Notes under the pieces: model-generated
The model's input: the letters and a program-made list of their open reading frames with translations, nothing else
Databases searched by the model: none
What the model was told of the DNA's origin: nothing
Source of the DNA: Candidatus Moraniibacteriota bacterium
GTDB taxonomy: Bacteria; Patescibacteriota; Minisyncoccia; Moranbacterales; UBA2206
Length of the DNA stretch: 43,944 nt
Assembly (NCBI GenBank): GCA_049297495.1
Contig: JBAQUL010000007.1
Coordinates: forward strand, 1-43,944
Reading direction: 5' to 3'
Made by a program: the position numbers and the translations under genes
In this document: piece after piece, positions 3,820 to 39,600 of the stretch
Layout: every line of letters begins with the position of its first letter
Numbering within the stretch: position 1 is the stretch's first letter

Positions 3820-4698
3820 GTGGTTAACCAAGCTGGTATAAAAATTGTGGCAGACAGTGAAAATCAAAACAATCAAATTGCTTTATTTAAAGGCAAGGCA
3901 ATCCGAAAAACGCTCTATCAAAAAGAGTGGTGGTTTTCGGTTGTGGATGTAGTTAGAGCGCTTCTTGATGAAGCGGATAGCTTAACTGCCAGAAAATACT
4001 GGAATAAACTCGCACAAAGACTCCGAGAGGAGGGAAGTGAACTGGTGACAATTTGTCACCAGTTGAAATTGCTAGCCGAAGACGGAAAAATGCGGGAAAC
4101 TGATTGTGCTAATACAGAGGGGATGTTTCGCATTGTTCAATCAATTCCTTCACCCAAAGCCGAGCCACTGAAACGTTGGTTGGCCAAAGTCGGCTATGAG
4201 CGGGTGCAAGAAATTGAAAATCCGGAACTAGCAACCAAAAGAACGAAATTACTCTATAAGCTCAAGGGTTATCCCGAAGATTGGATTGAAAAACGGATGC
4301 GTGGTATTGTGGTTCGCGAGGAGCTGACTGATGAGTGGCAAGAACGCGGGGCAAAGGAAAAGCGGGATTATGAAATTTTGACTGCTGAAATATCCAAAGC
4401 TACTTTCGGTATAACGCCAACGGAGTATAAAAAAGTGAAGGGGCTGAAGCGAGAGAACCTGCGTGATCATATGGATGATTTTGAATTGATTCTTACAATG
4501 CTCGGAGAAAAAACGACGACGGAAATTCATCGTACCAAAGATTCCCAGGGCTTGCCAAGATTGAAAGATGATGCTCGAGTTGGTGGACAAATCGCCGGAA
4601 CAGCCAGAAAGCAAATTGAAAGAAAATTGAAAAGGCCGATTGTTTCGAAGAATAATTTTTTGAAAAAGAGGCACACTAAGAAATTAAATAGCAAATAA
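3820..4698 (+). CDS. Bro-N domain protein, DinD-like (DNA-damage-inducible protein D family)
   Basis: GTG start. WWFSVVDVVRAL, RIVQSIPSPKAEPLKRWLAKVGYERVQE, LTDEW and NLRDHM blocks match my recollection of Bro-N/DinD-family proteins. The stop lies 4 nt before the trpS ATG. Confidence 0.6.
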   Translation: MVNQAGIKIVADSENQNNQIALFKGKAIRKTLYQKEWWFSVVDVVRALLDEADSLTARKYWNKLAQRLREEGSELVTICHQLKLLAEDGKMRETDCANTEGMFRIVQSIPSPKAEPLKRWLAKVGYERVQEIENPELATKRTKLLYKLKGYPEDWIEKRMRGIVVREELTDEWQERGAKEKRDYEILTAEISKATFGITPTEYKKVKGLKRENLRDHMDDFELILTMLGEKTTTEIHRTKDSQGLPRLKDDARVGGQIAGTARKQIERKLKRPIVSKNNFLKKRHTKKLNSK

Positions 4699-17581: not shown

Positions 17582-19666
<2,085 letters not shown>

Positions 19667-26916: not shown

Positions 26917-26954
26917 TTGACAGTGTTAGTGTATCAATGATAAAATAACACTGT
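26917..26954 (+). promoter_or_regulatory. candidate lexA promoter (TTGACA, 18 nt spacer, TGaTAAAAT extended -10) overlapped by a 9-bp inverted repeat
   Basis: TTGACA at 26917-26922 and TAAAAT at 26941-26946. ACAGTGTTA (26920-26928) and TAACACTGT (26946-26954) bracket the promoter. Confidence 0.5.
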
Positions 26955-26967
26955 AATTATTAAATTC

Positions 26968-27096
26968 ATCCCCCACCACTTTTTTACTCGCATTTATAAT
27001 GCGGATAGGGGCTAGGTTTCAGGAATATTTATTACATGTGCTGATTGTGATTGTAACTGTGAATTAAAGTTCAAAAGTAAAAAAGTGGTGGGGGAT
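26968..27096 (+). promoter_or_regulatory. perfect 20-bp inverted repeat (89-nt loop) in the lexA leader; the 3' arm contains the SD
   Basis: atcccccaccacttttttac (26968-26987) is the exact reverse complement of gtaaaaaagtggtgggggat (27077-27096). The lexA ATG is at 27105. Confidence 0.7.
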
Positions 27097-27104
27097 AAAA
27101 AAAT

Positions 27105-27764
27105 ATGATACTAACAGCCAAACAACAAAACATTCTTGAATCGATTCGAGAATTGATCAGTCAGGGTAAAGAAAACCCGACTAGTTATCGCCTACAAAAA
27201 TATCTTGAATCACAAGGCGTCAAAGATAGCTTAAAGTCAGTGATGCAGGTGATTGAGTCATTGGAAAAAAAAGATCTCATCAAGCGCGACAAGAATAAAA
27301 AAATTTATCTGATTGAAAACGAGAACTACGCAAACTTCAAAAATATCTTTTCTGTTCCAGTCTATGGCCTGGCTTCTTGCGGAGAGGCTTTGGCCTATGC
27401 GCAGGATAACGTAGATGGCTTTTTGCAGATTTCCAAAGCCCTTTTTCGCGATAAAGATGAGTCGCTTTTGTTTGCTGTGAAGGCACTTGGTGACTCAATG
27501 GATAAAGAAAAAATTAATGATGGCGATTATGTCATTTTTGAAAAATATGAACAGCGAGAAGACCTGGAAGGCAAAATTGTGGTGGCAGTGGTGAATGGCA
27601 TGGCCACCATCAAGCGCTACAAAAAAGTCAGTGAAGATGTAATTGGCCTTTTTCCCAAATCGACCAACCCGATCCATCAGCCAATCTTCATCCACAAATC
27701 CGATTCCTTCATTTTTGCCGGAATTTTCCGCAAAGTCTTGCCGGTGAAATATGTGAGTTTGTAG
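27105..27764 (+). CDS. lexA: LexA-family repressor (wHTH plus S24 peptidase)
   Basis: N-terminal winged-helix region, the linker VPVYGLASCGEALAYA, the catalytic Ser in ALGDSM and Lys in ATIKRYKK. Confidence 0.8.
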   Translation: MILTAKQQNILESIRELISQGKENPTSYRLQKYLESQGVKDSLKSVMQVIESLEKKDLIKRDKNKKIYLIENENYANFKNIFSVPVYGLASCGEALAYAQDNVDGFLQISKALFRDKDESLLFAVKALGDSMDKEKINDGDYVIFEKYEQREDLEGKIVVAVVNGMATIKRYKKVSEDVIGLFPKSTNPIHQPIFIHKSDSFIFAGIFRKVLPVKYVSL

Positions 27765-27863
27765 ATTTCTTTTTTTGACAAAAAGAGTTTTCTAGGCTTA
27801 TTATGTTGGTAGGTTAGGGGATATTTTGTTGTTTTACCAATAAAATAGCGGGGGTGCTTATTT

Positions 27864-28100
27864 ATGAAAGAAGAAGGAAGAACGTTGAAAGTCTTTGTTG
27901 CTAAAGGACAAACCTTGAGAGCTTTTTTGACGGCGATTAATGTAGATTTGGCCAATGTTGAGAAAATAAAGATTGGTTGCGAGTGGTTATTCATTTTAAC
28001 GTCTGAAATAGCTGAGCGTGTTTTGGTTAGCAAAGATACCTTCGTTGAGGTTCTTCTTAAGAAAGGTGTCTATGTGGGATATTGCCCCTATAGCGTGTAG
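27864..28100 (+). CDS. hypothetical protein (78 aa) downstream of lexA
   Basis: It has its own TTGACA promoter-like box near 27771, a GC-rich SD (gcggggg) and a strong terminator. No recognisable motif. Confidence 0.55.
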   Translation: MKEEGRTLKVFVAKGQTLRAFLTAINVDLANVEKIKIGCEWLFILTSEIAERVLVSKDTFVEVLLKKGVYVGYCPYSV

Positions 28101-28137
28101 ATTCCTCTAAAAGGAGGAAGATTTCACTAACCCATGG

Positions 28138-28176
28138 GCCGGTTTCAGATTGCTTGAAACCGGCTTAGATTTTTTT
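28138..28176 (+). terminator. rho-independent terminator
   Basis: gccggtttca-gattgct-tgaaaccggc followed by ttagattttttt. Confidence 0.8.
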
Positions 28177-28204
28177 CTAGGGCTTCAGCTTGTAAGAAAA
28201 AATA

Positions 28205-28263
28205 AAAAAGTTTTAAACCGAAATATGCCAAATTTAAATATGCAATATGAGCTATTTGACTAA
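28205..28263 (+). repeat. direct repeat R1: duplicated copy of the uvrA-1 promoter region and first codons
   Basis: aaaaagttttaaaccgaaatatgccaaatt matches 29257-29286 at 27/30. It is followed by ATGCAA tat gag cta ttt gac TAA (MQYELFD*), against the uvrA-1 start MQDELII. Confidence 0.65.
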
Positions 28264-28359
28264 AACGTTTTTTGGTGTCAGTATTTTGTCAACCATGATT
28301 TTCGTCCATAACTATCCCATGTGCGTATGTTTGTCCACCTATAAGAGAGGGAGGTAGTC

Positions 28360-29172
28360 ATGAAAAAATTTCATCAATTAGTGGCGTTGTTTGTGGTTTT
28401 TTGTTCCTTGTCATCCTCTAGTGTAGCTTGGCCGGAGGAAATCGTCCACATTTTCAATAAAGATGGCGCGGTAGATCAGGTCCGAAAGGACATTGCTCCA
28501 AGGCTAGAGGTGGCCACTGGTGGGGCAACGTATACGCGGTCACTTTATTTGACCATTGGCGATCCGCAAGCGCTTAATAGTTTTTCGATATTTGCTGTGC
28601 CGGTTTCTGGCACGGTGCTGACGGTTGGCGACGGTTCCGTCGTGGAACTATGGTGCTATCAGTATGTGAACGGAGATTATTTATGGCAACAATTTTCCGA
28701 TTTTGGCAACCTGCCAAGTGGATCGTATGTCATCGTAAAAGGTAACAAATATTCCCAAAGCAACATAAAGCAGTTTGACGCCACGCTCAGGATTCCTGTG
28801 GAGCCAGATCATTTTCTCTATCAGTATTTCGAGCGGCATCAAGATCGGTTTTGTCGAGATTTTTTAGTGCCGATCGAAAGTCAAAATATTTTACCAAGCG
28901 AAGATGGTGCCACATATAATGTGGCATATCTCGGAAATCTAACGACGATGTCTGTCAGTAGGATTGCCGAAATCGACGGATCGGCAATTCGATGTCTCGA
29001 TGGCATTCAGAGGAGGAATAAGCTTTTGGCTGTAGTACTACCAGGAGCTATTGGTAACTTGGAAACCGTTCTTACCGCAGATCAGGCAAAGGCAAATCAG
29101 CTTGAACTGCGGGATGGCCAGATTTTTGGCCTGGTGCTGGAAATTGTTCCCGATATTATTCCACAACCATAG
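28360..29172 (+). CDS. secreted hypothetical protein (270 aa)
   Basis: Strong SD (gggagg) and the signal peptide MKKFHQLVALFVVFCSLSSSSVAWP. Visibly more GC-rich than its neighbours. No recognisable domain. Confidence 0.7.
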   Translation: MKKFHQLVALFVVFCSLSSSSVAWPEEIVHIFNKDGAVDQVRKDIAPRLEVATGGATYTRSLYLTIGDPQALNSFSIFAVPVSGTVLTVGDGSVVELWCYQYVNGDYLWQQFSDFGNLPSGSYVIVKGNKYSQSNIKQFDATLRIPVEPDHFLYQYFERHQDRFCRDFLVPIESQNILPSEDGATYNVAYLGNLTTMSVSRIAEIDGSAIRCLDGIQRRNKLLAVVLPGAIGNLETVLTADQAKANQLELRDGQIFGLVLEIVPDIIPQP

Positions 29173-29188
29173 TTCCCACAATAGGGAA

Positions 29189-29230
29189 GCGAGCCGGTGC
29201 AACTCAGTTGTATCGGCTCGTAATATTTTA
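29189..29230 (+). terminator. stem-loop after the secreted-protein gene (weak T-tail)
   Basis: cgagccg-gtgcaactcagttgtat-cggctcg, then taatatttta. Confidence 0.45.
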
Positions 29231-29256
29231 TGGACAGTTGGCTTGCAGGAAAAGCC

Positions 29257-29302
29257 AAAAAGTTGTAAACTGAAATATGCTAAATTATATTTTTTTATGC
29301 AA
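29257..29302 (+). repeat. direct repeat R2 (native uvrA-1 promoter and start)
   Basis: aaaaagttgtaaactgaaatatgctaaatt, then TATATT (29285-29290) 6 nt before the ATG at 29297. No SD is visible. Confidence 0.65.
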
Positions 29303-32300
29303 GACGAATTAATCATCCGCGGAGCGAGGGAGCATAATTTGAAAAATGTAAACCTTGATTTGCCGCGGAATAAATTTATTGTTTTTACAGGAATCAGTGG
29401 CTCAGGCAAGAGTACGCTGGCTTTTGATACTATTTTTGCTGAAGGGCAACGGCGTTATTTGGAAAGCTTATCCAGTTATGCTCGGCAGTTTTTGGGGCAG
29501 ATGGGAAAGCCGGAAGTGGATTCGATTGAGGGACTCAGTCCCGCGATTTCTATCGACCAAAAAGCCGCTTCGCATAATCCGCGCTCAACCGTGGGAACGG
29601 TGACGGAAATTCACGACTATCTGCGATTGCTTTATGCTAAAATTGGCACGGCGCATTGCCCCATTTGCAACAGGGAGATCGTGAAACTTTCCACGGATGA
29701 AATTGTGGACCGGATTTTGAATATTTGCACGGAAGGAAATAAAAAATCGACAAAAGACAATTGCACGATTGAAATTTTTTCTCCCATCGTGCGTGAGCGC
29801 AAAGGGGAATATTCGACACTACTGGAAGAAATGTTTCGGCGTGGTTTTTCCACTGCCTTTGTGAATGGAAAAAAATATGCGCTGGATGAAAAGATTGGCG
29901 CGCGGGTAAAGTTGGAACGCTACAAAAAACATAATATTGATATTTTGGTTGATAAAGTGGAAATTAATTCCGAGAATATTTCACGGATTTTTGAAGGCGT
30001 GGAGCAGGCGTTGAGATTGTCGAAAGGAATTGTCAAAGTAAAATTTCCAAATCCAAATTTCCAATTTCAAACCAAATCCAAAGTTCAAAATTATAATGAC
30101 AAAAAAAAGAAAAATACTTTTGCCAAGAAGGGAGAAGATTTTGAAATTAGTGAAGTAATTTTTAACCAAAATTTTTCTTGCCCGGTGCATGAGGTGGATT
30201 TTCCCGAATTGGAACCGCGCTTGTTTTCTTTCAATAGTCCATTTGGCGCTTGTCCGTCTTGCGAAGGCTTGGGTGTGAAAAAGGAAATTGATCCGGAACT
30301 AGTTGTGCCGGATATGAATAAAACGATTGCCGAAGGTGGAATTATGCCGTGGAGTTATAAGAAAAATAACTGGCAAGGCACAATTTTGCGCGCAGTGACC
30401 AATTTCTATCACATCCGCGATAATGTGCGATTACGTGACTTATCGGAGGATGATTTCAATACGTTACTTTACGGAAGTCCTGAATCAGAAGACATGATTG
30501 CCGAGGATGAAGCAGATGAAATCCCAGTGACGTTGCGCAGTAAAACCGGTTCAAGTTGGAAATATAATATGCGTTGGCGGGGAGTGGTGGGTTATTTGCA
30601 GGAGCGCTATCTTAAAACGGATTCGGAAAGCGTACGCACGGACATTGAAAAATATATGTCACAAAATCCTTGTTCGACTTGCCTCGGTTCGCGCTATAAA
30701 AAAGAAGTTTTGCTTGTAACTGTGGGAGATTCTGCCCGCAATGCTACGCTTTTAAATGGGACGGAGAATTCTGATAGTTATAGTAAAAAAACAAAGGAAG
30801 GCACTAACTCCAAGGAGCATAGCGTTGCAGGCGGGAAAAATATTTATGAAATTTCTAACATCAGCGTACGGGAAACCTTGGATTTTTTTCAAAAAATAAA
30901 ATTTAGTAAACGTGAAGAATTGATTGCCAGTCGAATTCTCAAGGAAATTCAAAATCGTTTGGGTTTTTTGCAAGATGTCGGCCTTGGCTATCTTTCCCTT
31001 GGTCGCGCCGCCAATACCCTGGCTGGTGGCGAATCTCAACGCATTCGTTTGGCTTCGCAAATCGGCTCACAACTCGTTGGCGTGCTCTATATCCTCGACG
31101 AACCATCAATCGGCCTTCATGCGCGCGATAACGCCAAATTGCTTTCCACACTTTTGCAACTGCGCGATGTGGGTAATACTCTTATTGTGGTCGAGCACGA
31201 CGAAGAAACAATGCGCGCGGCAGATTATCTCGTGGACATTGGACCGGGAGCAGGAAAACACGGCGGAGAAATTGTGGCCGAGGGGTCGCCGGAAGAAGTG
31301 ATGAAAAGTAAAAAGTCACTCACTGCCAAATATTTGCGTGGGGAAATGCAAATTGAAATCCCATCCTTTAGGCGATCGCTCAAAAACAAAAAAACACTTG
31401 TGGTGCGCGGAGCACGCGAGCATAATTTGCAAAATATTACTGTTTCGTTTCCACTTAAAGTTTTGACCTGTGTGACGGGCGTGTCTGGCTCAGGAAAATC
31501 AACTCTGGTCGAAGATATTCTCTATAAGGCCCTGTCGGCCAAAATTATGCGTTCCTTGGAACGTCCAGGCAAGCACAGTGAAATTGTCGGTGATCATTAT
31601 CTCAACAAAGTGATTATGATTGACCAGTCGCCAATTGGACGTACACCACGGTCCAATCCGGCCACCTACACCGGACTGTTCACTGCTATCCGTGAACTGT
31701 TTGCCGAAACGCGGGACGCCAAAGCAAAAGGTTATTCGCCGGGACGATTTTCTTTTAATGTTAAGGGCGGCCGCTGTGATAATTGTCAGGGTGATGGGTA
31801 CAACAAAATTGAAATGCAGTTTATGCCGGACGTCTATCTACCTTGTGATGTTTGCTCTGGAAAACGCTACAACAGCGAAACGCTGAAAGTGAAATATCGT
31901 GATAAAAATATTGCGGATGTACTGGCGATGACCATATCTGAAGCGCGTGAATTTTTTGCTAATTTTCATGATATTGCTGACAAACTGAAAGTTCTCGAAG
32001 ATGTTGGCTTGGGCTACATTCAACTCGGACAATCCGCTACGACGCTTTCCGGCGGAGAAGCGCAACGCATTAAACTTTCCACGGAACTGTCTCGCCGTGC
32101 CACAGGGGATACTTTATATATTCTAGACGAACCAACAACTGGTTTGCATTTTGATGACATCAAAAAACTGCTGGGAATTCTCAATCGTTTGGTTGATGCC
32201 GGCAACACCGTTATTGTAATTGAACATAATTTAGACGTAATCAAAACTGCCGATTGGATCATTGATCTTGGACCGGAAGGTGGCAAAGAAGGTGGAAAAG

Positions 32301-32389
32301 TGATCGTTTCCGGCACGCCAGAAGAAGTGGCGAAGTGGCATAAGGAGAGTTGGACAGGGAGGTATTTGAAAGAATGTCTGAACCACTGA
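29297..32389 (+). CDS. uvrA: Excinuclease ABC subunit A, paralogue 1 (canonical motifs, two in-frame repeat insertions)
   Basis: [59 protein letters not shown], Zn-finger CxxC pairs, a second ABC module [21 protein letters not shown]. 1030 aa. The tracked ORF start at 29051 is an out-of-gene extension. Confidence 0.95.
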   Translation: MQDELIIRGAREHNLKNVNLDLPRNKFIVFTGISGSGKSTLAFDTIFAEGQRRYLESLSSYARQFLGQMGKPEVDSIEGLSPAISIDQKAASHNPRSTVGTVTEIHDYLRLLYAKIGTAHCPICNREIVKLSTDEIVDRILNICTEGNKKSTKDNCTIEIFSPIVRERKGEYSTLLEEMFRRGFSTAFVNGKKYALDEKIGARVKLERYKKHNIDILVDKVEINSENISRIFEGVEQALRLSKGIVKVKFPNPNFQFQTKSKVQNYNDKKKKNTFAKKGEDFEISEVIFNQNFSCPVHEVDFPELEPRLFSFNSPFGACPSCEGLGVKKEIDPELVVPDMNKTIAEGGIMPWSYKKNNWQGTILRAVTNFYHIRDNVRLRDLSEDDFNTLLYGSPESEDMIAEDEADEIPVTLRSKTGSSWKYNMRWRGVVGYLQERYLKTDSESVRTDIEKYMSQNPCSTCLGSRYKKEVLLVTVGDSARNATLLNGTENSDSYSKKTKEGTNSKEHSVAGGKNIYEISNISVRETLDFFQKIKFSKREELIASRILKEIQNRLGFLQDVGLGYLSLGRAANTLAGGESQRIRLASQIGSQLVGVLYILDEPSIGLHARDNAKLLSTLLQLRDVGNTLIVVEHDEETMRAADYLVDIGPGAGKHGGEIVAEGSPEEVMKSKKSLTAKYLRGEMQIEIPSFRRSLKNKKTLVVRGAREHNLQNITVSFPLKVLTCVTGVSGSGKSTLVEDILYKALSAKIMRSLERPGKHSEIVGDHYLNKVIMIDQSPIGRTPRSNPATYTGLFTAIRELFAETRDAKAKGYSPGRFSFNVKGGRCDNCQGDGYNKIEMQFMPDVYLPCDVCSGKRYNSETLKVKYRDKNIADVLAMTISEAREFFANFHDIADKLKVLEDVGLGYIQLGQSATTLSGGEAQRIKLSTELSRRATGDTLYILDEPTTGLHFDDIKKLLGILNRLVDAGNTVIVIEHNLDVIKTADWIIDLGPEGGKEGGKVIVSGTPEEVAKWHKESWTGRYLKECLNH
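30041..30148 (+). repeat. family-D (AATTTCC / CCAAAT) element, in frame in uvrA-1
   Basis: aaatttccaaatccaaatttccaatttcaaacc...gattttgaaatt encodes FPNPNFQFQTKSKVQNYNDKKKKNTFAKKGEDFEI. The arms aatttcaaa / tttgaaatt are complementary. The left end is nearly identical to the intergenic 38293-38310. Confidence 0.6.
30732..30835 (+). repeat. family-A-derived element with terminal inverted repeats, in frame in uvrA-1
   Basis: ctgcccgcaatgctacgc and gcatagcgttgcaggcggg are 14/18 complementary. The centre ttatagtaaaa also occurs in copy A3. It encodes SARNATLLNGTENSDSYSKKTKEGTNSKEHSVAG between VTVG and GKNI. Confidence 0.6.
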
Positions 32390-32431
32390 TTAACACTGAT
32401 TGAAATGATTTCACTGAATTATAAAAAACAA

Positions 32432-33769
32432 ATGTCAACCAAAATCGCCAAAAAACTGAAAAGCTTGCCCACCTCTCCTGGTGTCTATATTTTCTATGCC
32501 CAAGGCGTAAATAATGCCGGGAAAATTTTGTATGTAGGCAAAGCCACGTCGTTGAAAGATCGGGTCGGGTCATATTTTCAAAGTCGCAGTGGCTATGCTC
32601 GGCCAATTGAGATGTTTATGGATCAGGTCGCGGATATTGAAGTTCGGAAAACCGAAACAGTTCTCGAGGCGTATATCTTGGAGCAGGAGCTGATCAAAAA
32701 GTGGCAACCGAAGTTTAATGTGGATGGGAAAGACGGAAAGTCATTTGCGCATGTATTTGTTACTAAAGAAGAATTTCCCCGGTTTATGGTCGTGCGAAAA
32801 ACTGATATTGTTCAAATTTCTAATTTCCAATTTCTAATTTCTAAACAAGTTCCAATTTCCAAGGAACAAATTTCAAAAAAAATACAAGCCACCAAAATCT
32901 ATGGTCCATATATTTCTAAGAAAAATATTGAGATAGCGCTGAAGATTCTCAGGAAAATTTTTCCCTACCATTCAAAAGCGCAAAAAACAGAAAGTGGTTG
33001 TTTGGATTTTCAGATTGGGCTTTGCCCTGGGCCATATGCTGGGGCGATTTCGAAAGAGGATTATGCGAAAAATATTAGGGGAATCAAAATGATTTTAGAG
33101 GGGAAGAAAAAAAGTCTTATTGCCAAGATGAAAAAGGAAATGTCGGATCTGAGTGAGAAACAAGAATTTGAAAAGGCGGGGAAGGTGAGAAATGCGATTT
33201 TTGCGTTGCAGCATATTCAGGATATAGCTATCATCTCTGATCGAGATGATAATTTCCAATTTCCAATTTCCAATTTCCAATCAATTTCCAATGATAAAAT
33301 TTCAAAATTAAAAAACATTCGAATTGAAGGATATGATATTTCTAATATTTCTGGAAAATCTAGTGTCGGGTCGATGGTGGTGTTTGATAATACGAACGGG
33401 GAAATCGGTCCGAACAAAAGCCAGTATCGGAAATTTAAAATAAAGACCGTGGAAGGCGCGAATGATACTGCTTCGATGGCGGAAGTGCTGGGTCGTAGAT
33501 TTGGGAATAGTTGGACTAAGCCGGATCTCATCATTCTAGATGGCGGGCAAGGCCACCTCACCGCCGTGAGGCGTGTGCTCAAAAATTTTCATCTGGAAAT
33601 TCCACTGCTGGCTGTTGCTAAGGGTCCCACGCGCAAAAAACTCGACCGCTATGCCTTCGGCAGTGTGCCGGAAATTTCCGACGAAATCATCGAACGCGTC
33701 AGGGATGAGGCGCATCGCTTTGCGATTACCTATCATAAGAAATTGCGAGGGAAGGAATTTATGAAATAG
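32432..33769 (+). CDS. uvrC: Excinuclease ABC subunit C, C-terminally short (no HhH region)
   Basis: GIY-YIG (PGVYIFY...ILYVGKATSLKDRVGSYF), UVR domain (EKQEFEKAGKVRNAIFALQHI), the endonuclease domain IEGYDISN...ILDGGQGHL, and RDEAHRFAITYHKKLR close to the stop. Start taken at MSTKIAKK (32432). Confidence 0.9.
   Translation: MSTKIAKKLKSLPTSPGVYIFYAQGVNNAGKILYVGKATSLKDRVGSYFQSRSGYARPIEMFMDQVADIEVRKTETVLEAYILEQELIKKWQPKFNVDGKDGKSFAHVFVTKEEFPRFMVVRKTDIVQISNFQFLISKQVPISKEQISKKIQATKIYGPYISKKNIEIALKILRKIFPYHSKAQKTESGCLDFQIGLCPGPYAGAISKEDYAKNIRGIKMILEGKKKSLIAKMKKEMSDLSEKQEFEKAGKVRNAIFALQHIQDIAIISDRDDNFQFPISNFQSISNDKISKLKNIRIEGYDISNISGKSSVGSMVVFDNTNGEIGPNKSQYRKFKIKTVEGANDTASMAEVLGRRFGNSWTKPDLIILDGGQGHLTAVRRVLKNFHLEIPLLAVAKGPTRKKLDRYAFGSVPEISDEIIERVRDEAHRFAITYHKKLRGKEFMK
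32815..32862 (+). repeat. degenerate AATTTCY heptamer run, in frame in uvrC
   Basis: aatttct aatttcc aatttct aatttct aaacaagttcc aatttcc encodes QISNFQFLISKQVPISK. Confidence 0.7.
33251..33292 (+). repeat. perfect (AATTTCC)x4 tandem heptamer plus a fifth unit, in frame in uvrC
   Basis: aatttcc x4 (33251-33278), then aatc, then aatttcc; encodes NFQFPISNFQSISN. Confidence 0.85.
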
Positions 33770-33803
33770 TGTTTATTTGAAAGCGGGCTGTTTGTTACTA
33801 AGT

Positions 33804-33948
33804 TGTCATCCTGAGCGGAGTCCTGATAGCAATCGGGACGCAGTCGAAGGATCTACTGACCATTATCGCTGGCTTAATTATTTATAGTAAAACCTACGAT
33901 TAATCGAAGCAGATCCTTCGACTCCACTACGTTTCGCTCAGGATGACA
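33804..33948. repeat. Family-A MITE-like palindromic element, copy A3
   Basis: tgtcatcctgagcggagtcc...gtcgaaggatct and agatccttcgactccactacgtttcgctcaggatgaca. It begins 35 nt after the uvrC stop. Confidence 0.8.
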
Positions 33949-33967
33949 TAAAAATAAGAATATTCTT

Positions 33968-34642
33968 ATGCCGAAAATCAAAATCTCAAAAATCATTCGC
34001 TCCAAAAGAAAAAATATCGCGCTTGTGATTACGCACGACGCGACTTTAGTTGTGCGTGCGCCGATGCGCACTCCGCTGGGCTACATCGAAAAACTAGTGG
34101 AAGAAAAATTTGCTTGGATTGAAAGGAAGATGCGGGAATTTGAAAAGCGGCCCAAAGCGGAGAAGAAAACTTTTTTTGAAGGAGAGGAGTTTTTGTATTT
34201 GGGAAAAAAATACAAATTAGCATTGACCAACGGACTCAAAATTGAAACTACTGAAGATTTTGAATTACTTTTCCCCAGAGTTTTTCTTTGGCGTGCGCAT
34301 CATCGAATGCACGATTGGTACAAGAAGCAGGCGCATAAAGAAATTTCCGAGCGGACAAAAATAATTGCTGAGAAATTAAACCTCAAATATTCATCGCTCA
34401 AAATTTCCAACGCCAAAACCAATTGGGGATCATGCGGACCAAAAAACAGTTTGAATTTCAATTGGCGCCTGATTATGGCGCCTGAGGTGGTTGTGGGTTA
34501 TGTCATCATCCATGAGCTGATGCATATTCCCGAAAAAAATCATTCGGCAAAATTTTGGAACAAAGTTGCGGCGGTGATGCCGGGATATAAAACTGCCAGA
34601 AAGTGGCTAAGGGATAATAGTAAGGTTTTGACGTTGGAATAG
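33968..34642 (+). CDS. DUF45/YgjP-like zinc metallohydrolase (M48-like zincin)
   Basis: HELMHIPEKNHSAKFW (HExxH plus a downstream H/E) and the NWGSCGPKN block typical of DUF45. Confidence 0.8.
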   Translation: MPKIKISKIIRSKRKNIALVITHDATLVVRAPMRTPLGYIEKLVEEKFAWIERKMREFEKRPKAEKKTFFEGEEFLYLGKKYKLALTNGLKIETTEDFELLFPRVFLWRAHHRMHDWYKKQAHKEISERTKIIAEKLNLKYSSLKISNAKTNWGSCGPKNSLNFNWRLIMAPEVVVGYVIIHELMHIPEKNHSAKFWNKVAAVMPGYKTARKWLRDNSKVLTLE

Positions 34643-34735
34643 TTGGGTAACTTGATTTTTTAGTTATTTCATGGTAGTATGTAACGTTGCTATTTTAACA
34701 ATAAAATAAACCTATAATAACAAAAGGAAAAAGCC

Positions 34736-35314
34736 ATGTTTATAAGAATATCTCTTGGAATGTTGTCTTTTGTTGTTGTTTCCGTTTTCTTTGGTCAGCC
34801 ATTTAATATCTGGTCACTCGTGCTTTCCATTTTGTTTATATTACTTCCGCTTGTCGATTGGCTACCATATCTAATGATACGAAAAAAATATAAACTAGTA
34901 TCGCATTATCTGTGGTACTATCCGCTAGTTTATGTTCCAGTGGGGGCGGTGATCGTTTGGATAATTTTAAAAGGTGAATATTATGTCATACTGTTCATAA
35001 TGAACAGTCTCGCTAATTTTATTCATGCGACATTTAGAACTCCGCTGGGCTTGGAATGGTTTTGGCCTTTTAGTAAAAACTCATTTAGCCTATATGGAAA
35101 TGAGCTAACGATTTTTTCAAAAGATGAAAGACTCGCCTGTATGAAAAAAAAGTACGCTCAATATGAAGCGCGGTCCCTGAAAAAAAGAGGAAAACAGGAA
35201 GCACGGTCATTGTCCGAAGAATTTTCTGACCGTAAACATCCAAAAGGTAAAAAAACCGTAGCTTTATTGGCTATTTCAATCTTAGCTGTTATGGTTTTTT
35301 GGCTCCTAAATTAA
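34736..35314 (+). CDS. integral membrane protein, DUF457/YdjM-like (tentative)
   Basis: Four hydrophobic helices. LLPLVDWLPY and GLEWFWPFS resemble the LPDxDH and G-x-x-x-x-WPFS blocks of YdjM-type membrane hydrolases, but the His is absent. Charged C-terminal tail plus a final TM. Confidence 0.4.
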   Translation: MFIRISLGMLSFVVVSVFFGQPFNIWSLVLSILFILLPLVDWLPYLMIRKKYKLVSHYLWYYPLVYVPVGAVIVWIILKGEYYVILFIMNSLANFIHATFRTPLGLEWFWPFSKNSFSLYGNELTIFSKDERLACMKKKYAQYEARSLKKRGKQEARSLSEEFSDRKHPKGKKTVALLAISILAVMVFWLLN

Positions 35315-35340
35315 GGAGCTGTTTTTGGCACATCGATGCT

Positions 35341-35387
35341 GAAGCCCTGTCATATAATTGTCATATGATAGGGCTTCTTTTGTTTTT
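35341..35387 (+). terminator. rho-independent terminator
   Basis: gaagccct-(21 nt)-agggcttc followed by ttttgttttt. Confidence 0.75.
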
Positions 35388-35398
35388 ATTATGACAGC

Positions 35399-35427
35399 TT
35401 GCCAAAACTGAAAAACTAGTGTAAAAT
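35399..35427 (+). promoter_or_regulatory. candidate uvrA-2 promoter (TTGCCA, 17 nt spacer, TAAAAT)
   Basis: TTGCCA at 35399-35404 and TAAAAT at 35422-35427. It shares gcttgc and aaactgaaa strings with the uvrA-1 upstream region. Confidence 0.45.
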
Positions 35428-35482
35428 TTGTTCCTAGTAATGCTATTGGCGTCTTTTTAAAAAATGTAACTCTTTTTTGCCT

Positions 35483-38290
35483 ATGTCAAAAAACAAACCA
35501 AAGGATAGAAGCCAGATTATCGTGCGCGGAGCACGGGTGAATAATTTGAAAAATATTGATGTGGAAATCCCACGGGACAGGCTGGTTGTCATTACCGGAC
35601 TGTCCGGTTCGGGCAAATCTTCTTTAGCTTTTGATGCGATTTATGCCGAAGGCAATCGGCGTTATCTTGAGGGAATGTCTAGCTACGCGACGCAATTTTT
35701 GGATGTGTCGGCCAAACCGGATGTGGACAAAATTGAAAATCTCACCCCAACCATTTCAATTGATCAAAAAAGTATCGCGCGCAGTCCGCGCTCAACTGTT
35801 GGGACACTGACGGAAATTTATGATTATCTGCGCGTGCTTTATGCGAAAACTGGAATGCCGCATTGCCCGCATTGCAAAACACCCTTAGAAAAAATTACTA
35901 ACTCAGAAGTATTGGAAGATATTCTTAACTCTCCCGACAAGACGAACATCGCAATTCTTGCCAAACTTAATGGCAAAGAGCGAAATTTGAAAGAAACCCT
36001 GAAAAGTGTTAGTCAGCTTGGCTATGCGCGGATTCGCTTCAAAGGGAAAATAATGTCACTTGCTGAAGCATTGGCACTAAATGATATTGATGCGGATGAG
36101 ACTTGCAATGCCGAGATCGTAATTGATCGGTTGGTTTTGAATAAAAAAAATCCTGATCGAGAAAGAATTTTAGATTCAATTGAGACTGCTTTCAAATTGG
36201 GCAAGGGTATGGCTGTGGTAATCAAAGATAATGAAGTTGAGAAAATATATAATCGTGATTTTGTGTGCAAGAAATGCTTTTTTGAAGTTGCCGATATCAC
36301 CCCAAAGCATTTTTCTTTCAATAGTCCTGAGGGTGCCTGTCAGCATTGTTCCGGACTTGGCATAATCAAGGAAATTGACGAGGATCTCCTAATCCCAAAT
36401 AAAAACCTGACGCTCGCTGAGGGAGCGATTTTGTCGTGGAATAAATCAGGCGGGAGATCAAGCGTGCTTGCCAGCGGGAATAATATTTTGAAAATGCTGG
36501 GGGATAAATATGGATTTTCTATCGATATTCCTGTGAAAAAAATCAGTCGTGAACATCTAAATATCGTGCTTTATGGTTCGAATGATCCTAAGATAATCTT
36601 TGAAGGAGTTATTCCGACAATGAAAAAGAAATATGAGGAAATGAATTCCAACTATCTGCGGAGTGAGATTGAAAAATACATGATTGAAAAAGTTTGTCCG
36701 CTTTGTTCGGGCAAGCGGTTAAAGGGGGAATATCTCTCAGTTCTTGTAGCAGGGAAATCAATTGATCAGACAGTGGACTTGTCTCTCGTGGATTTTTCTA
36801 TTTTTCTGGAAGCGTTAGAAAAAACAAATATTAGTTCGGTCAAGAAAAATATAATATTACCATTGGTCAAGGAGATGAAAGCGCGTAGTGCTGCACTTCA
36901 AAATGTAGGCTTAGGCTATCTTTCGCTTTCGCGCTCGGCTAATTCAATCTCCGGTGGAGAGGGGCAGCGTATTCGTCTGGCAACTCAGATCGGTTCGGAA
37001 CTTTCCGGTATCACTTATGTTCTGGACGAACCTTCAATTGGCCTGCATAATCGTGATACGGAAAAATTGGTAGCAACAATGGAAGAATTGCGCGAAGCGG
37101 GGAATTCCCTCATCACCGTGGAGCATGATGAACAAATAATTCGCCGTGCAGATTGGATTATTGATATGGGACCTGGCGCTGGCGAGGAAGGTGGAGAGGT
37201 GATTTTTTCTGGAGATCTTCAAAAACTTTTAAAATCAAAAACTTTGACAGCTCAATACCTGAATGGCAAAAGACAGGTCGGGGACAAGAAAAAGGCGCGC
37301 AAAGGTTCTGGAAAATTTATTAAAATTCAAGGAGCGACTGAACATAACTTGAAAGATATTGACGTGAATCTTCCCTTGGGGAAATTTATCTCGCTTACTG
37401 GCGTTTCTGGTTCAGGCAAATCAACGTTGGTAACAGATATCCTGTCGAAAGCTTTGGCGAAGTATTTTTTCAATACCAAAGAAGCTCCTGGTAAGCATAA
37501 GAAAATTAGTGGAATGGAAAGTATTGATAAGGTGATTAGTATCAATCAGTCTCCGATTGGTCGTACGCCACGATCAAATGCAGCAACGTATACTGGCGTA
37601 TTTTCACTCATCCGTGAGCTATTTGCGCAGACAGAGGAGTCGCATACTCGAGGATATGATGCCAGTCGGTTTAGTTTTAATATGAAAGGCGGGCGTTGCG
37701 AGGATTGCCAGGGAGAAGGAAAAAAGAAAATCGAGATGCATCTTTTGCCAGATGTCTATGTCGCTTGTGAAACTTGCAATGGTGCCAAGTACAATCAAAG
37801 AACGCTGGAAATTGAATACCGTGGAGTGAATATAGCTCAAGTGCTTGATATGAGTGTGAGTTATGCGTTAGCCTTTTTCAAGAATTCTAAATTAGTGACA
37901 GAAAAATTAGTCACACTGGAAAAAGTTGGTCTGGGCTATCTGAAATTGGGACAAAGCGCAGTAGACCTCTCTGGTGGAGAGGCACAGCGGATTAAATTAG
38001 CAACAGAGCTTTCTCGTCGTGCGACCGGCAAAACTCTGTACATTTTGGACGAACCAACAATTGGTCTCCATTTTGAAGACATTCGAAAACTCTTGGGAGT
38101 GCTTGATGCACTCGTTGACAAGGGCAATACTGTTTTGGTTGTTGAACATAATGTCGATGTGATTCGCAATTCCGATTGGGTGATTGATTTAGGACCGGAA
38201 GGCGGAAATGGTGGGGGAGAAATCGTGTTTGAAGGGTCACCGACAGAGCTGAAAAAATGCTCAAAGAGTTGGACGGGGAAATATCTCTAA
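35483..38290 (+). CDS. uvrA: Excinuclease ABC subunit A, paralogue 2 (divergent, insertion-free)
   Basis: [35 protein letters not shown], Zn-finger CxxC pairs, [21 protein letters not shown]. About 935 aa from the ATG at 35483 (tracked TTG at 35477). Confidence 0.9.
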
Positions 38291-38375: not shown

Positions 38376-39317
38376 ATGCTAGACCCGCTTTCCCAAAACA
38401 TCCTTGCCACCATTGCCTATTACGACGTCCTGGATTATCCATTGACGGTTTTTGAATTGTGGAAATATTTGATTAGCGACCAACAATCAGCGAATAACGA
38501 ACAAGAAATAGAAAAAATAACAATCGCGAATATTATTTTTGAACTGGAAGATGAAGAGTTGAAAAAACAAATCGAAACTTTCCGTGGGTACTATTTCTTG
38601 TCAGGGCGCAAAAATTTGGTGGCACAAAGAATTGAACGCAATAAAATATCTGAAGAAAAGTACGGAACAATTCAGTGGGTTGTGCAATTTTTGCGTTTCG
38701 TGCCATATGTTCGAATGATTTTGGTGACTGGACGGGTGGCGATGAAAAATGCTGGCAGAAAAAGCGATCTTGATTTTTTGATTTGCCTGGAAAAAGGAAG
38801 GATTTTTACTGGCAGGACTTTGGTTACGTTAGTTATCCATCTTTTAGGCAAAAGACGTTATGGAAAAAAAATTACCAATAGAATTTGCCTTAATTATTTC
38901 ATCACTACTGAATCTCTCGAGATTGAAATGCAAGATCTTTTTGCATCCTCGGAGTATTTCTTTGCGCTGCCTGTGTTTGGTTTTGATGTGTTTAGAGAAT
39001 TTCAAAAAGCTAATGGTTGGATTTCCAAATATCATGCAAATTTTATCTCTACGGAAATTCCAAATCTAAAGTTGAAATCCGACAACTATTTTTCAAAGTT
39101 AATTCGATCTGCTGGTGAAGAATTGTTTGGCTTTGATTATCTTGAGCAAAAATTGAAAGTCTGGCAAACTAAAAGAATTGCCTTGGATCCACGTACGAAT
39201 ATGCCCGGGAGCATGATCGTTGCTGATGATAATTCTTTGGTTTTTTTGCCTGAGCCGCAGGGGCCGAAAGTTTTTGAAGCGTTCAAGCTGAGAATGAAAA
39301 ATTTGGCAGGGGAATAG
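38376..39317 (+). CDS. hypothetical protein, possible nucleotidyltransferase fold
   Basis: 313-aa ORF. TGRVAMKNAGRKSDLDFLI resembles the G-[SG]...D-x-D motif of pol-beta-type NTases. Weak call. Confidence 0.4.
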   Translation: MLDPLSQNILATIAYYDVLDYPLTVFELWKYLISDQQSANNEQEIEKITIANIIFELEDEELKKQIETFRGYYFLSGRKNLVAQRIERNKISEEKYGTIQWVVQFLRFVPYVRMILVTGRVAMKNAGRKSDLDFLICLEKGRIFTGRTLVTLVIHLLGKRRYGKKITNRICLNYFITTESLEIEMQDLFASSEYFFALPVFGFDVFREFQKANGWISKYHANFISTEIPNLKLKSDNYFSKLIRSAGEELFGFDYLEQKLKVWQTKRIALDPRTNMPGSMIVADDNSLVFLPEPQGPKVFEAFKLRMKNLAGE

Positions 39318-39404: not shown

Positions 39405-39431
39405 TTAGCAATCTAGCCTTGTGAGTGCTAA
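39405..39431 (+). promoter_or_regulatory. CIRCE operator (HrcA binding site)
   Basis: TTAGCAATC-tagccttgt-GAGTGCTAA against the consensus TTAGCACTC-N9-GAGTGCTAA: one mismatch, exact 9-nt spacer, directly downstream of the promoter. Confidence 0.85.
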
Positions 39432-39439
39432 AAGAGTAT

Positions 39440-39600
39440 TCTCCTCGCCCTTCGGGAGAGGATGTCACGAGCACGTGACAGGTGAGGGCAAGGGCTTTTG
39501 ATAAACTTATTATTATCCTATGTACAACGTTTTTCCCTCCTATAACACCCTTGCCCTCATCCGGCCTTCGGCCACCTTCTCCCGATGGGAGAAGGGGAAC
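39440..39600. repeat. Family-B GC-rich element, full copy B2, inside the groEL leader
   Basis: The left half is nearly identical to B1. The 12-bp arms tgagggcaaggg (39483-39494) and cccttgccctca (39548-39559) are perfectly complementary. Terminal hairpins are ctcgcccttcgggagag and cttctcccgatgggagaagg. Confidence 0.7.

Follow-up and report, generated by a model that had tools for sequence, protein, structure and literature searches.

To our knowledge, decades of work on UvrA have dealt almost exclusively with its loading of UvrB. Those relatives known to act independently of UvrB, namely DrrC, Ecm16 and UvrA2 of Deinococcus radiodurans, are truncated class II proteins, and we know of no reason for a canonical excision-repair UvrA to persist without UvrB, UvrC and Mfd. 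Here, we describe two full-length UvrA paralogues, UvrA1 and UvrA2, encoded in a 43,944-nucleotide stretch of DNA from Candidatus Moraniibacteriota bacterium (order Moranbacterales, Patescibacteriota; assembly GCA_049297495.1, contig JBAQUL010000007.1, positions 1 to 43,944), hereafter the window. The same stretch carries genes for a LexA-like repressor, UvrB, UvrC, a YgjP-like zinc metallopeptidase of the DUF45 family and a membrane protein, the latter referred to as the membrane open reading frame (ORF). UvrA2 is kept in relatives from which the other excision-repair genes are gone. Our preferred explanation, which we hold with some though not firm confidence, is that UvrA1, UvrB and UvrC form a dispensable excision-repair set, that UvrA2 has a role needing neither UvrB nor UvrC, and that ygjP and the membrane ORF are later insertions.

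Both paralogues share their architecture with class I UvrA (Escherichia coli; Geobacillus stearothermophilus, PDB 2R6F and 3UWX), consisting of two ABC modules, three zinc modules, and UvrB-binding and insertion domains. UvrA1 further resembles class I UvrA by co-occurring with UvrB and UvrC. Unlike class I proteins, UvrA2 is kept without UvrB, UvrC and Mfd, and UvrA1 carries CPVH in one of its zinc pairs. Class II proteins lack the UvrB-binding domain and the first zinc finger, and one of them, Ecm16, gives echinomycin resistance in uvrA, uvrB, uvrC and uvrD mutants (PMC9328131). Class II proteins (D. radiodurans UvrA2, 2VF7; Ecm16, 7SH1; DrrC) are paralogues that stand beside a canonical UvrA and act without UvrB and UvrC; judged by its retention across genomes, the UvrA2 described here would be equally independent. 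In contrast to them, it possesses the UvrB-binding domain and the first zinc finger, matches 2VF7 and 7SH1 more weakly than class I structures, and represents the native UvrA of its lineage, not an accessory member of a biosynthetic gene cluster. The closest precedent for full-length UvrA paralogues dividing their labour comes from Porphyromonas gingivalis, whose two paralogues are ~42% alike: one is assigned to excision repair, while the other lies in a uvrA-PG1037-pcrA operon and is linked to peroxide sensitivity, a phenotype not found in the uvrB mutant (PMC3747172). That case differs in phylum and gene context; the PG1037/pcrA partner is absent here, and UvrB is always present there.

Retention of UvrA2 without UvrB and UvrC

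The uvr genes were surveyed in two samples, one of 41 genomes in which UvrA, UvrB and UvrC were searched, and one of 161 genomes from the order with a completeness of 90% or more. Most of the 41 genomes encode two UvrA proteins that differ in their scores on the class I equivalog model NF001503 (1400-1490 bits for type 1, 1110-1320 bits for type 2). Eight encode a single UvrA, always of type 2, and these are exactly the eight that have neither UvrB nor UvrC. In the larger sample, UvrB is missing from 26 genomes, 22 of which keep exactly one complete UvrA. This UvrA falls inside the UvrA2 clade in all 22 cases, distributed over 20 genera and 8 families. The other four comprise one genome with a fragmented type-2 copy, two fragmented bins with both types, and one genome without UvrA. 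Sister genomes from the same genus keep the full set in genera g34, g21, g61, g27 and g68. Outside the order, UvrB is present in 219 of 221 Patescibacteria, most of which have a single UvrA.

UvrA1, UvrB and UvrC are thus inherited and lost together, although their genes are not contiguous and occupy separate loci in several families. As UvrA1 co-occurs with UvrB and UvrC across the relatives, we infer that it is their excision-repair partner; for UvrA2, such co-occurrence does not hold, given the 22 UvrB-less genomes that keep it, of which the eight checked for UvrC lack that as well. Single loci record the losses. At L055, the order orf357-uvrA2-orf313 represents a clean loss of lexA-uvrA1-uvrC, and at L058, from the window's own genus, PKD and InlB-repeat surface-protein genes replace uvrA1-uvrC, with lexA, ygjP and uvrA2 remaining. 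Because relatives without the rest of the excision-repair set keep UvrA2, it probably has a separate job. The earlier note on this DNA had suggested that uvrA2 could belong to a dedicated subsystem together with a zincin and a membrane protein. The retention pattern makes a role outside canonical excision repair very probable, but the proposed partners are not conserved. What is new here is that the evidence for the role of UvrA2 comes from gene retention across genomes, not from neighbouring genes; the literature we searched yielded no description of UvrA2 being kept without UvrB.

Mfd is the other known ligand of UvrA's UvrB-binding domain. Searches of the order returned only partial, RecG-like matches, none over the cut-off, and with Mfd absent we discarded it as a partner for the UvrB-binding-like domain of UvrA2.

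Two further observations concern the distribution of UvrA. Genus g42 presents the reverse anomaly, in that neither type of UvrA is detectable in three of its genomes (E <= 1e-40): G076 matches UvrB over its full length (990 bits), G170 carries UvrB as two fragments, and the third, G049, is also without UvrB. Another UvrB-less genome, G057, contains a third UvrA-like ORF of 776 amino acids (contig C15:21444-23678) that lacks profile positions 127-269, corresponding to the UvrB-binding domain, and is class II-like.

Origin and conservation of the two UvrA proteins

For the phylogeny of UvrA, we combined 80 named UvrA proteins of many phyla (from among the matches listed) with E. coli UvrA and further Patescibacterial sequences, using FastTree and IQ-TREE with the LG+C20 model. 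UvrA1 and UvrA2 each form a clade with support 100 in both analyses. In the LG+C20 tree, UvrA2 lies inside the clade of all other Patescibacterial UvrAs (support 98), beside the single UvrAs of the same class. UvrA1 falls outside the Patescibacterial clade (support 96), together with the second ('b-type') UvrA of the Patescibacterial family f48. An approximately unbiased (AU) test rejects a single clade of UvrA1 and UvrA2 (p 0.021, log-likelihood difference 75). Scores on a UvrA2 profile follow the same division, with ~1660 bits for the order's UvrA2, 1200-1408 bits for the single UvrAs of other Patescibacteria, and less than 1203 bits for the co-resident UvrA1. Since UvrA2 sits inside the clade of other Patescibacterial UvrAs and UvrA1 outside it, the tree identifies UvrA2 as the native, vertically inherited Patescibacterial UvrA and the orthologue of the single UvrA of other members. 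By the same trees, UvrA1 belongs to another lineage, common to the order and f48. The earlier note had called uvrA2 clearly divergent, and a UvrA phylogeny of both copies bears this out: they are 44% identical, represent separate ancient lineages and are no recent duplicates, with a common origin within the order rejected.

The UvrB of the order groups with that of f48 (support 99), apart from the twelve other Patescibacterial UvrBs sampled, and in f48 uvrB lies 2 kb from the A1-type uvrA. This tree mirrors that of UvrA1 and is suggestive of the same second lineage; it is only suggestive because the UvrB sample is small and biased to few families. Separately, the UvrA of locus L080 (CAYGFD010000003.1), labelled 'uncultured Gammaproteobacteria', is nested in the Patescibacterial clade (support 98), a placement suggesting that the bin is mislabelled or chimeric or that the gene was transferred.

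Structurally, both proteins are full length, and UvrA2 is not of the truncated class II type, as the earlier note had recognised. Both score above the NF001503 (TIGR00630) cut-off of 1147 bits (Table 1), and both match the UvrA_inter and UvrA_DNA-bind domains (PF17760 and PF17755, E 1e-19 to 1e-24). UvrA2 matches 2R6F end to end with 1025 bits, and the class II structures 2VF7 and 7SH1 are its weakest UvrA matches in the PDB search. Conserved residues were surveyed in 28 UvrA1 and 39 UvrA2 sequences, including eight UvrA2 from genomes without excision repair, using E. coli numbering. The Walker A lysines (K37, K646) are invariant in both sets. In UvrA2, these lysines, the DNA-binding R712 and the zinc cysteines are kept in essentially all 39 sequences, with all CxxC pairs of the zinc modules conserved. 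The ATPase, zinc and DNA-binding residues are intact in the eight sequences from genomes without excision repair. UvrA1 has CxxH at C253/C256 in 28 of 28 sequences, with histidine replacing C256. The UvrB-contact residues R216 and E222 of E. coli UvrA were mutated in earlier work (PMC3025350); their equivalents in UvrA2 are R in 38 of 39 sequences and E in 35 of 39, the remainder of the latter being mostly E/Q.

For UvrA2, the ratio of nonsynonymous to synonymous substitution rates (dN/dS) amounts to 0.14 in a pair of UvrB-less genomes and to 0.06 in the pair G001 and G013, which belong to the window's genus; synonymous sites are saturated for deeper pairs. These values indicate that UvrA2 is under purifying selection. 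UvrA1 and UvrA2 differ most in the UvrB-binding-like domain (24% identity). We looked for relaxed constraint on this domain after loss of UvrB and saw none, as it evolves no faster in lineages without UvrB.

Some features of the UvrA proteins stand apart from these comparisons. UvrA1 of the window is longer (1030 amino acids) than in relatives (940-1000), owing to in-frame low-complexity inserts at residues ~246-283, near 400-424, and 478-512. In family f2 (G025, G036; for example G025:C9:19952-22489), the UvrA1 ORFs of 864-905 amino acids match the UvrA profile in two pieces that skip ~292-401, the insertion domain. Residues 619-934 of UvrA2, its second ABC module, match the PADLOC model mad3 of UvrA-like ATPases in MADS defence (E 2.5e-83), which is probably generic homology. 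A search of 1.84 billion representative proteins with UvrA2 gave matches dominated by double-length UvrA fusions.

To map gene neighbourhoods, the window proteins were compared by tblastn with 40 loci, taken from 40 relatives within the order. The order in relatives is (uvrB) ... orf357-[lexA]-uvrA1-uvrC-[ygjP]-uvrA2-orf313-groEL. This is the ancestral arrangement, and the window is a local version of it riddled with insertions. The core uvrA1-uvrC-uvrA2 is conserved in families f1, f5 and beyond. When the flanking ORFs are clustered, orf313, uvrC, groEL, uvrA1 and ygjP are the only recurring neighbours of uvrA2. The gene orf313 adjoins uvrA2 in 28 of 39 loci, usually between uvrA2 and groEL. 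Its product of 313 amino acids has no Pfam family; its predicted model (predicted local distance difference test, pLDDT, 84.6) gives weak Foldseek matches, the best with E 0.009, all of them nucleotidyltransferases. We predict a winged helix-turn-helix (wHTH) joined to a Pol-beta-type nucleotidyltransferase. It was rejected as a dedicated partner of UvrA2, since 160 of the order's 161 surveyed genomes carry it, including those without UvrA2.

Several points weigh against a UvrA2 role that is independent of UvrB and UvrC. UvrA2 retains the R216 and E222 equivalents as well as a complete UvrB-binding-like domain. In genomes that have UvrB, UvrA2 may therefore still load it, and the two paralogues may not divide their labour cleanly. 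Nor is it strictly essential, because the closed genome G159 has lost UvrA2 and kept only type 1 with UvrB and UvrC; perhaps one more genome with UvrB has type 1 alone. Neither a partner nor a substrate was found for such a role. Beyond the uvr genes and ygjP, only orf313 and groEL recur beside uvrA2. The genomes are metagenome assemblies, absences come from hidden Markov model searches of bins that are 90-100% complete, and the absence of UvrC was checked in the 41 genomes only. The AU p-value is moderate, as is the tree support for the exact origin of UvrA1, and the sample of UvrB from other Patescibacteria is small and biased.

With its full class I architecture, its score above the equivalog cut-off and its retained UvrB-contact residues, UvrA2 could also be read as a second excision-repair sensor, which might differ in lesion spectrum, heterodimerise with UvrA1, or be expressed constitutively next to a LexA-inducible copy. 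The adjacency of uvrA2 to uvrC in many genomes fits this, as does the occurrence of UvrA2 orthologues as the only UvrA in other Patescibacteria, alongside UvrB. Its retention in UvrB-less genomes would then be a leftover, which sits poorly with the number and spread of the genomes that keep it intact, with its purifying selection, and with the lack of residue decay or of relaxation in the UvrB-binding domain after loss of UvrB. In family f3, moreover, sister genomes from different genera (G026 and G037) are both without UvrB and UvrC and both carry an intact UvrA2. We regard this alternative as unlikely. Lower still we place the idea that UvrA2, where UvrB and UvrC are missing, feeds lesions to a non-homologous replacement excision system, be it a nuclease and helicase that have escaped recognition or activities that a host cell provides. 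A UvrB-binding-like domain that stays conserved after UvrB loss is consistent with another partner binding there, but the uvrA2 neighbours yielded no candidate: only orf313 and groEL recur, and orf313 is present regardless of UvrA2. Such a replacement appears improbable, and a separate role for UvrA2 remains the explanation we prefer.

Layout of the locus, its repressor and its insertions

The features of the locus are collected in Table 1; uvrA1, uvrC, uvrB and the Bro-N (DinD-like) gene lie where the earlier note had placed them. That note had also described a repair island headed by lexA. The lexA-like gene and the gene order stand, whereas the unity of the island was overstated, since predicted terminators and promoters divide the locus of this genome into at least four transcription units. 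From this arrangement, uvrA2 would be transcribed from its own promoter, behind two terminators. Its true start is the ATG at 35483, which matches relatives.

Table 1 Features of the locus. Positions follow the window numbering; all genes named by the earlier note in the lexA-uvrA2 stretch are on the + strand.
Feature	Position	Strand	Evidence
Bro-N (DinD-like N-terminus) protein	3820-4698		Bro-N domain match
uvrB, excision-repair helicase	17582..19666	+	Pfam UvrB, UvrB_inter, Helicase_C; TIGR00631 940.7 bits in two pieces
lexA promoter TTGACA-18-TAAAAT with two overlapping dyads (candidate autoregulatory operator)	26917..26954	+	promoter 26917-26946, scan 11/12 (strong)
LexA-like self-cleaving repressor	27105..27764	+	wHTH, S24 peptidase, Cys-Gly cleavage site, GDSM serine, IKRY lysine
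78-aa ORF, strain-specific	27864..28100	+	no family match; own promoter 27775-27804, terminator 28135-28167
270-aa protein, signal-peptide-like N-terminus, inserted cassette	28360..29172	+	no family match; terminator 29189-29221
uvrA1, class I UvrA, 1030 aa	29297..32389	+	NF001503 1426.6 bits; promoter 29263-29291
uvrC, 454 aa	32405..33769	+	GIY-YIG, UVR and RNase H-like endonuclease domains
YgjP-like/DUF45 zinc metallopeptidase, 224 aa	33968..34642	+	PF01863 E 1.3e-58, HELMH
Membrane protein ORF, 192 aa, strain-specific here	34736..35314	+	family assignment not significant
Two predicted intrinsic terminators closing the uvrA1-uvrC-ygjP-membrane ORF unit	35300..35377	+	terminator scan
uvrA2 own sigma-70-like promoter, TTGCCA-17-TAAAAT	35399..35427	+	promoter scan and sequence
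uvrA2, full-length UvrA of class I architecture, 935 aa	35483..38290	+	NF001503 1262.5 bits
orf313, predicted wHTH and Pol-beta-type nucleotidyltransferase	38376..39317	+	motif G119...S130-D131-x-D133; core gene of the order

In E. coli, the SOS regulon includes lexA, uvrA, uvrB, ydjM and dinD. The LexA-like protein of the window matches Peptidase_S24 (PF00717, E 9e-19) with a weak LexA wHTH, and reaches 87.8 bits on TIGR00498, under the cut-off of 110.95. Its self-cleavage features are ASCGE (Cys-Gly, as in UmuD), GDSM and IKRYKK. Two dyads, CAGTGTTA-N3-TATCAATG and CAATGATA-N3-TAACACTG, lie over the lexA promoter. They are conserved upstream of lexA in relatives from three genera and form a candidate autoregulatory operator. 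The earlier note had raised a shared operator upstream of positions 27105, 29297, 35483, 17582 and 3820, and we scanned the window and the whole genome with a motif derived from the lexA promoters of relatives. The dyads are the sole sites in the genome to reach 14/16 matches. No sites were found near uvrA1, uvrA2, uvrB or the Bro-N gene, and genome-wide there is no enrichment (47 sites at >=12/16 against 65-88 in shuffled sequence). The uvrB upstream regions of relatives contain no common motif. An operator common to a repair regulon was rejected, with the dyads found only at lexA's own promoter.

The comparison with the E. coli system is therefore mixed. A self-cleaving S24 repressor, a dyad over its own promoter, a position directly upstream of uvrA1 and a RecA encoded elsewhere in the genome are shared features. 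In contrast, the protein falls under the LexA equivalog cut-off, the operator differs from known LexA boxes, and regulon sites are lacking. Few genera of the order have lexA at all. In the window, the 5' leader of lexA (26968-27096) is spanned by a long and perfect inverted repeat, CCCCCACCACTTTTTT ... AAAAAAGTGGTGGGGG, that ends just 5' of the start codon; G011 has this repeat too, and the other lexA leaders lack it.

The spacer between lexA and uvrA1 (28205-29299) is an insertion hot spot, measuring from 12 bp (as in relative G008) to >1 kb among relatives. The earlier note had listed an inserted cassette at this site, and the 270-amino-acid ORF does appear as an insertion because a ~35-bp duplication of the uvrA1 promoter region flanks it on both sides (28205-28243 and 29255-29299). 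A distant homologue (30% identity) occupies the same place in G006 (L051:14889-15620). The 78-amino-acid ORF has no tblastn match in the relatives, and neither ORF matches a family. Long palindromes, GTCATCCTGAGCG ... CGCTCAGGATGAC and similar, lie in the uvrC-ygjP gap (33800-33950) and upstream of groEL (39430-39600); these intergenic elements look like miniature mobile repeats.

UvrC scores 313.8 bits on TIGR00194 (cut-off 285.45) and carries the three domains of Table 1. The C-terminal (HhH)2 domain is absent from UvrC here and order-wide, where the ORFs of 410-490 amino acids end right after the RNase H-like endonuclease domain.

The earlier note had assigned the ORF at 33968 to the DUF45/YgjP-like HExxH hydrolases, compared it to Wss1/SprT-type zincins, and assigned the one at 34736 to DUF457/YdjM. 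Only the first of these assignments held. YgjP spans positions 1-206 of the 207 in PF01863 (198.8 bits, cut-off 26), with the intact motif HELMH. PF01863 is its sole Pfam match at E <= 0.01, with no match to the SprT-like or WLM families, and its nearest PDB sequence is the minigluzincin proabylysin (4JIU, E 0.0015, around the active site). On these grounds, an assignment to the crosslink proteases of the SprT/Wss1 type is not supported. The single-sequence AlphaFold model of YgjP is poor (pLDDT 53). YgjP resembles the DUF45 minigluzincins in its full-length family match and intact HExxH, and differs from them in its position beside uvrA2 in one genus only. We know of no function linked to DNA repair in the DUF45 family. 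For the membrane ORF, the DUF457 model PF04307 gives E 0.65 and 9.9 bits (cut-off 29), and an hhalign comparison with E. coli YdjM a probability of 1.5%. The two resemble each other only in a local H..T..G..WPFS-like motif, and DUF457/YdjM was dropped as an identity.

The neighbourhood uvrC-DUF45-DUF457-uvrA2 proposed by the earlier note is not conserved in the relatives. The placement of full-length YgjP between uvrC and uvrA2 is confined to the window's genus (g1), and the YgjP paralogue of other genera is shorter and encoded at a different genomic site. None of the 40 relatives has a counterpart of the membrane ORF; 5.8 billion proteins yielded just 8 homologues of it, all devoid of Pfam domains, and the one homologue contig that was read places it in an unrelated context among NUDIX, YchF and TrmB genes. 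PADLOC run on the window proteins returned only generic UvrA-like ATPase matches (mad3). The best explanation, on the evidence of gene order, is that both genes are later insertions into the uvrC-uvrA2 spacer and not parts of a module. That YgjP, the membrane protein and UvrA2 form a damage-processing or drug/toxin-resistance module within the excision-repair operon, acting in crosslink repair or in the manner of DrrC, is very improbable: the zincin is real and intact, and adjoins uvrA2 in all g1 members looked at, among them G001 with its loss of uvrA1 and uvrC, but one gene is confined to a genus and the other to a strain, YgjP has proabylysin and not SprT/Wss1 as its nearest solved relative, two terminators and a promoter separate both genes from uvrA2, UvrA2 is older than both insertions by the depth of the whole order and conserved throughout it without either, and no PADLOC match is specific to the zincin or the membrane protein. 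The earlier note had cited DrrC as a precedent for the resistance role; here, Ecm16 and DrrC serve as an analogy for action independent of UvrB (PMC9328131).

A probable stand-alone role for full-length UvrA

In the arrangement that we favour, UvrA1 would act as the damage sensor that loads UvrB for incision by UvrC. In the window's genus, it would stand under the self-repressing LexA, whose putative operator overlaps the lexA promoter. UvrA2, expressed from its own promoter, would act without UvrB and UvrC. Tentatively, and as a weak inference, it might be pictured as an ATP-driven dimeric clamp that probes DNA distortion and either evicts stalled proteins or non-covalent binders, in the manner of Ecm16 and DrrC, or passes lesions to nucleases that are not part of the Uvr system.

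That many genomes of ~0.6-1.3 Mb without UvrB, UvrC and Mfd keep a complete class I-type UvrA under purifying selection amounts to a natural knockout series, and the pattern points to a stand-alone activity of full-length UvrA. It also provides testable proteins, namely UvrA1 and UvrA2 of one cell, and UvrA2 from backgrounds with and without excision repair. One order of Patescibacteria can dispense with excision repair and has lost it repeatedly, although it is near-universal among other members of the phylum, and the origin of the excision-repair set appears to differ from that of the order's native UvrA. We could speculate further, though we hold this only loosely, that the native Patescibacterial UvrA has a second function, independent of UvrB and UvrC, that matters more than excision repair and is hidden elsewhere because one UvrA does both; a foreign-lineage UvrA/UvrB(/UvrC) set would have taken over repair in this order and then been lost repeatedly. 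The hidden function may lie in sensing DNA roadblocks or distortions for replication or transcription, or in evicting DNA-bound ligands. If true, cells with UvrA only would expose a function that is hidden in single-UvrA bacteria.

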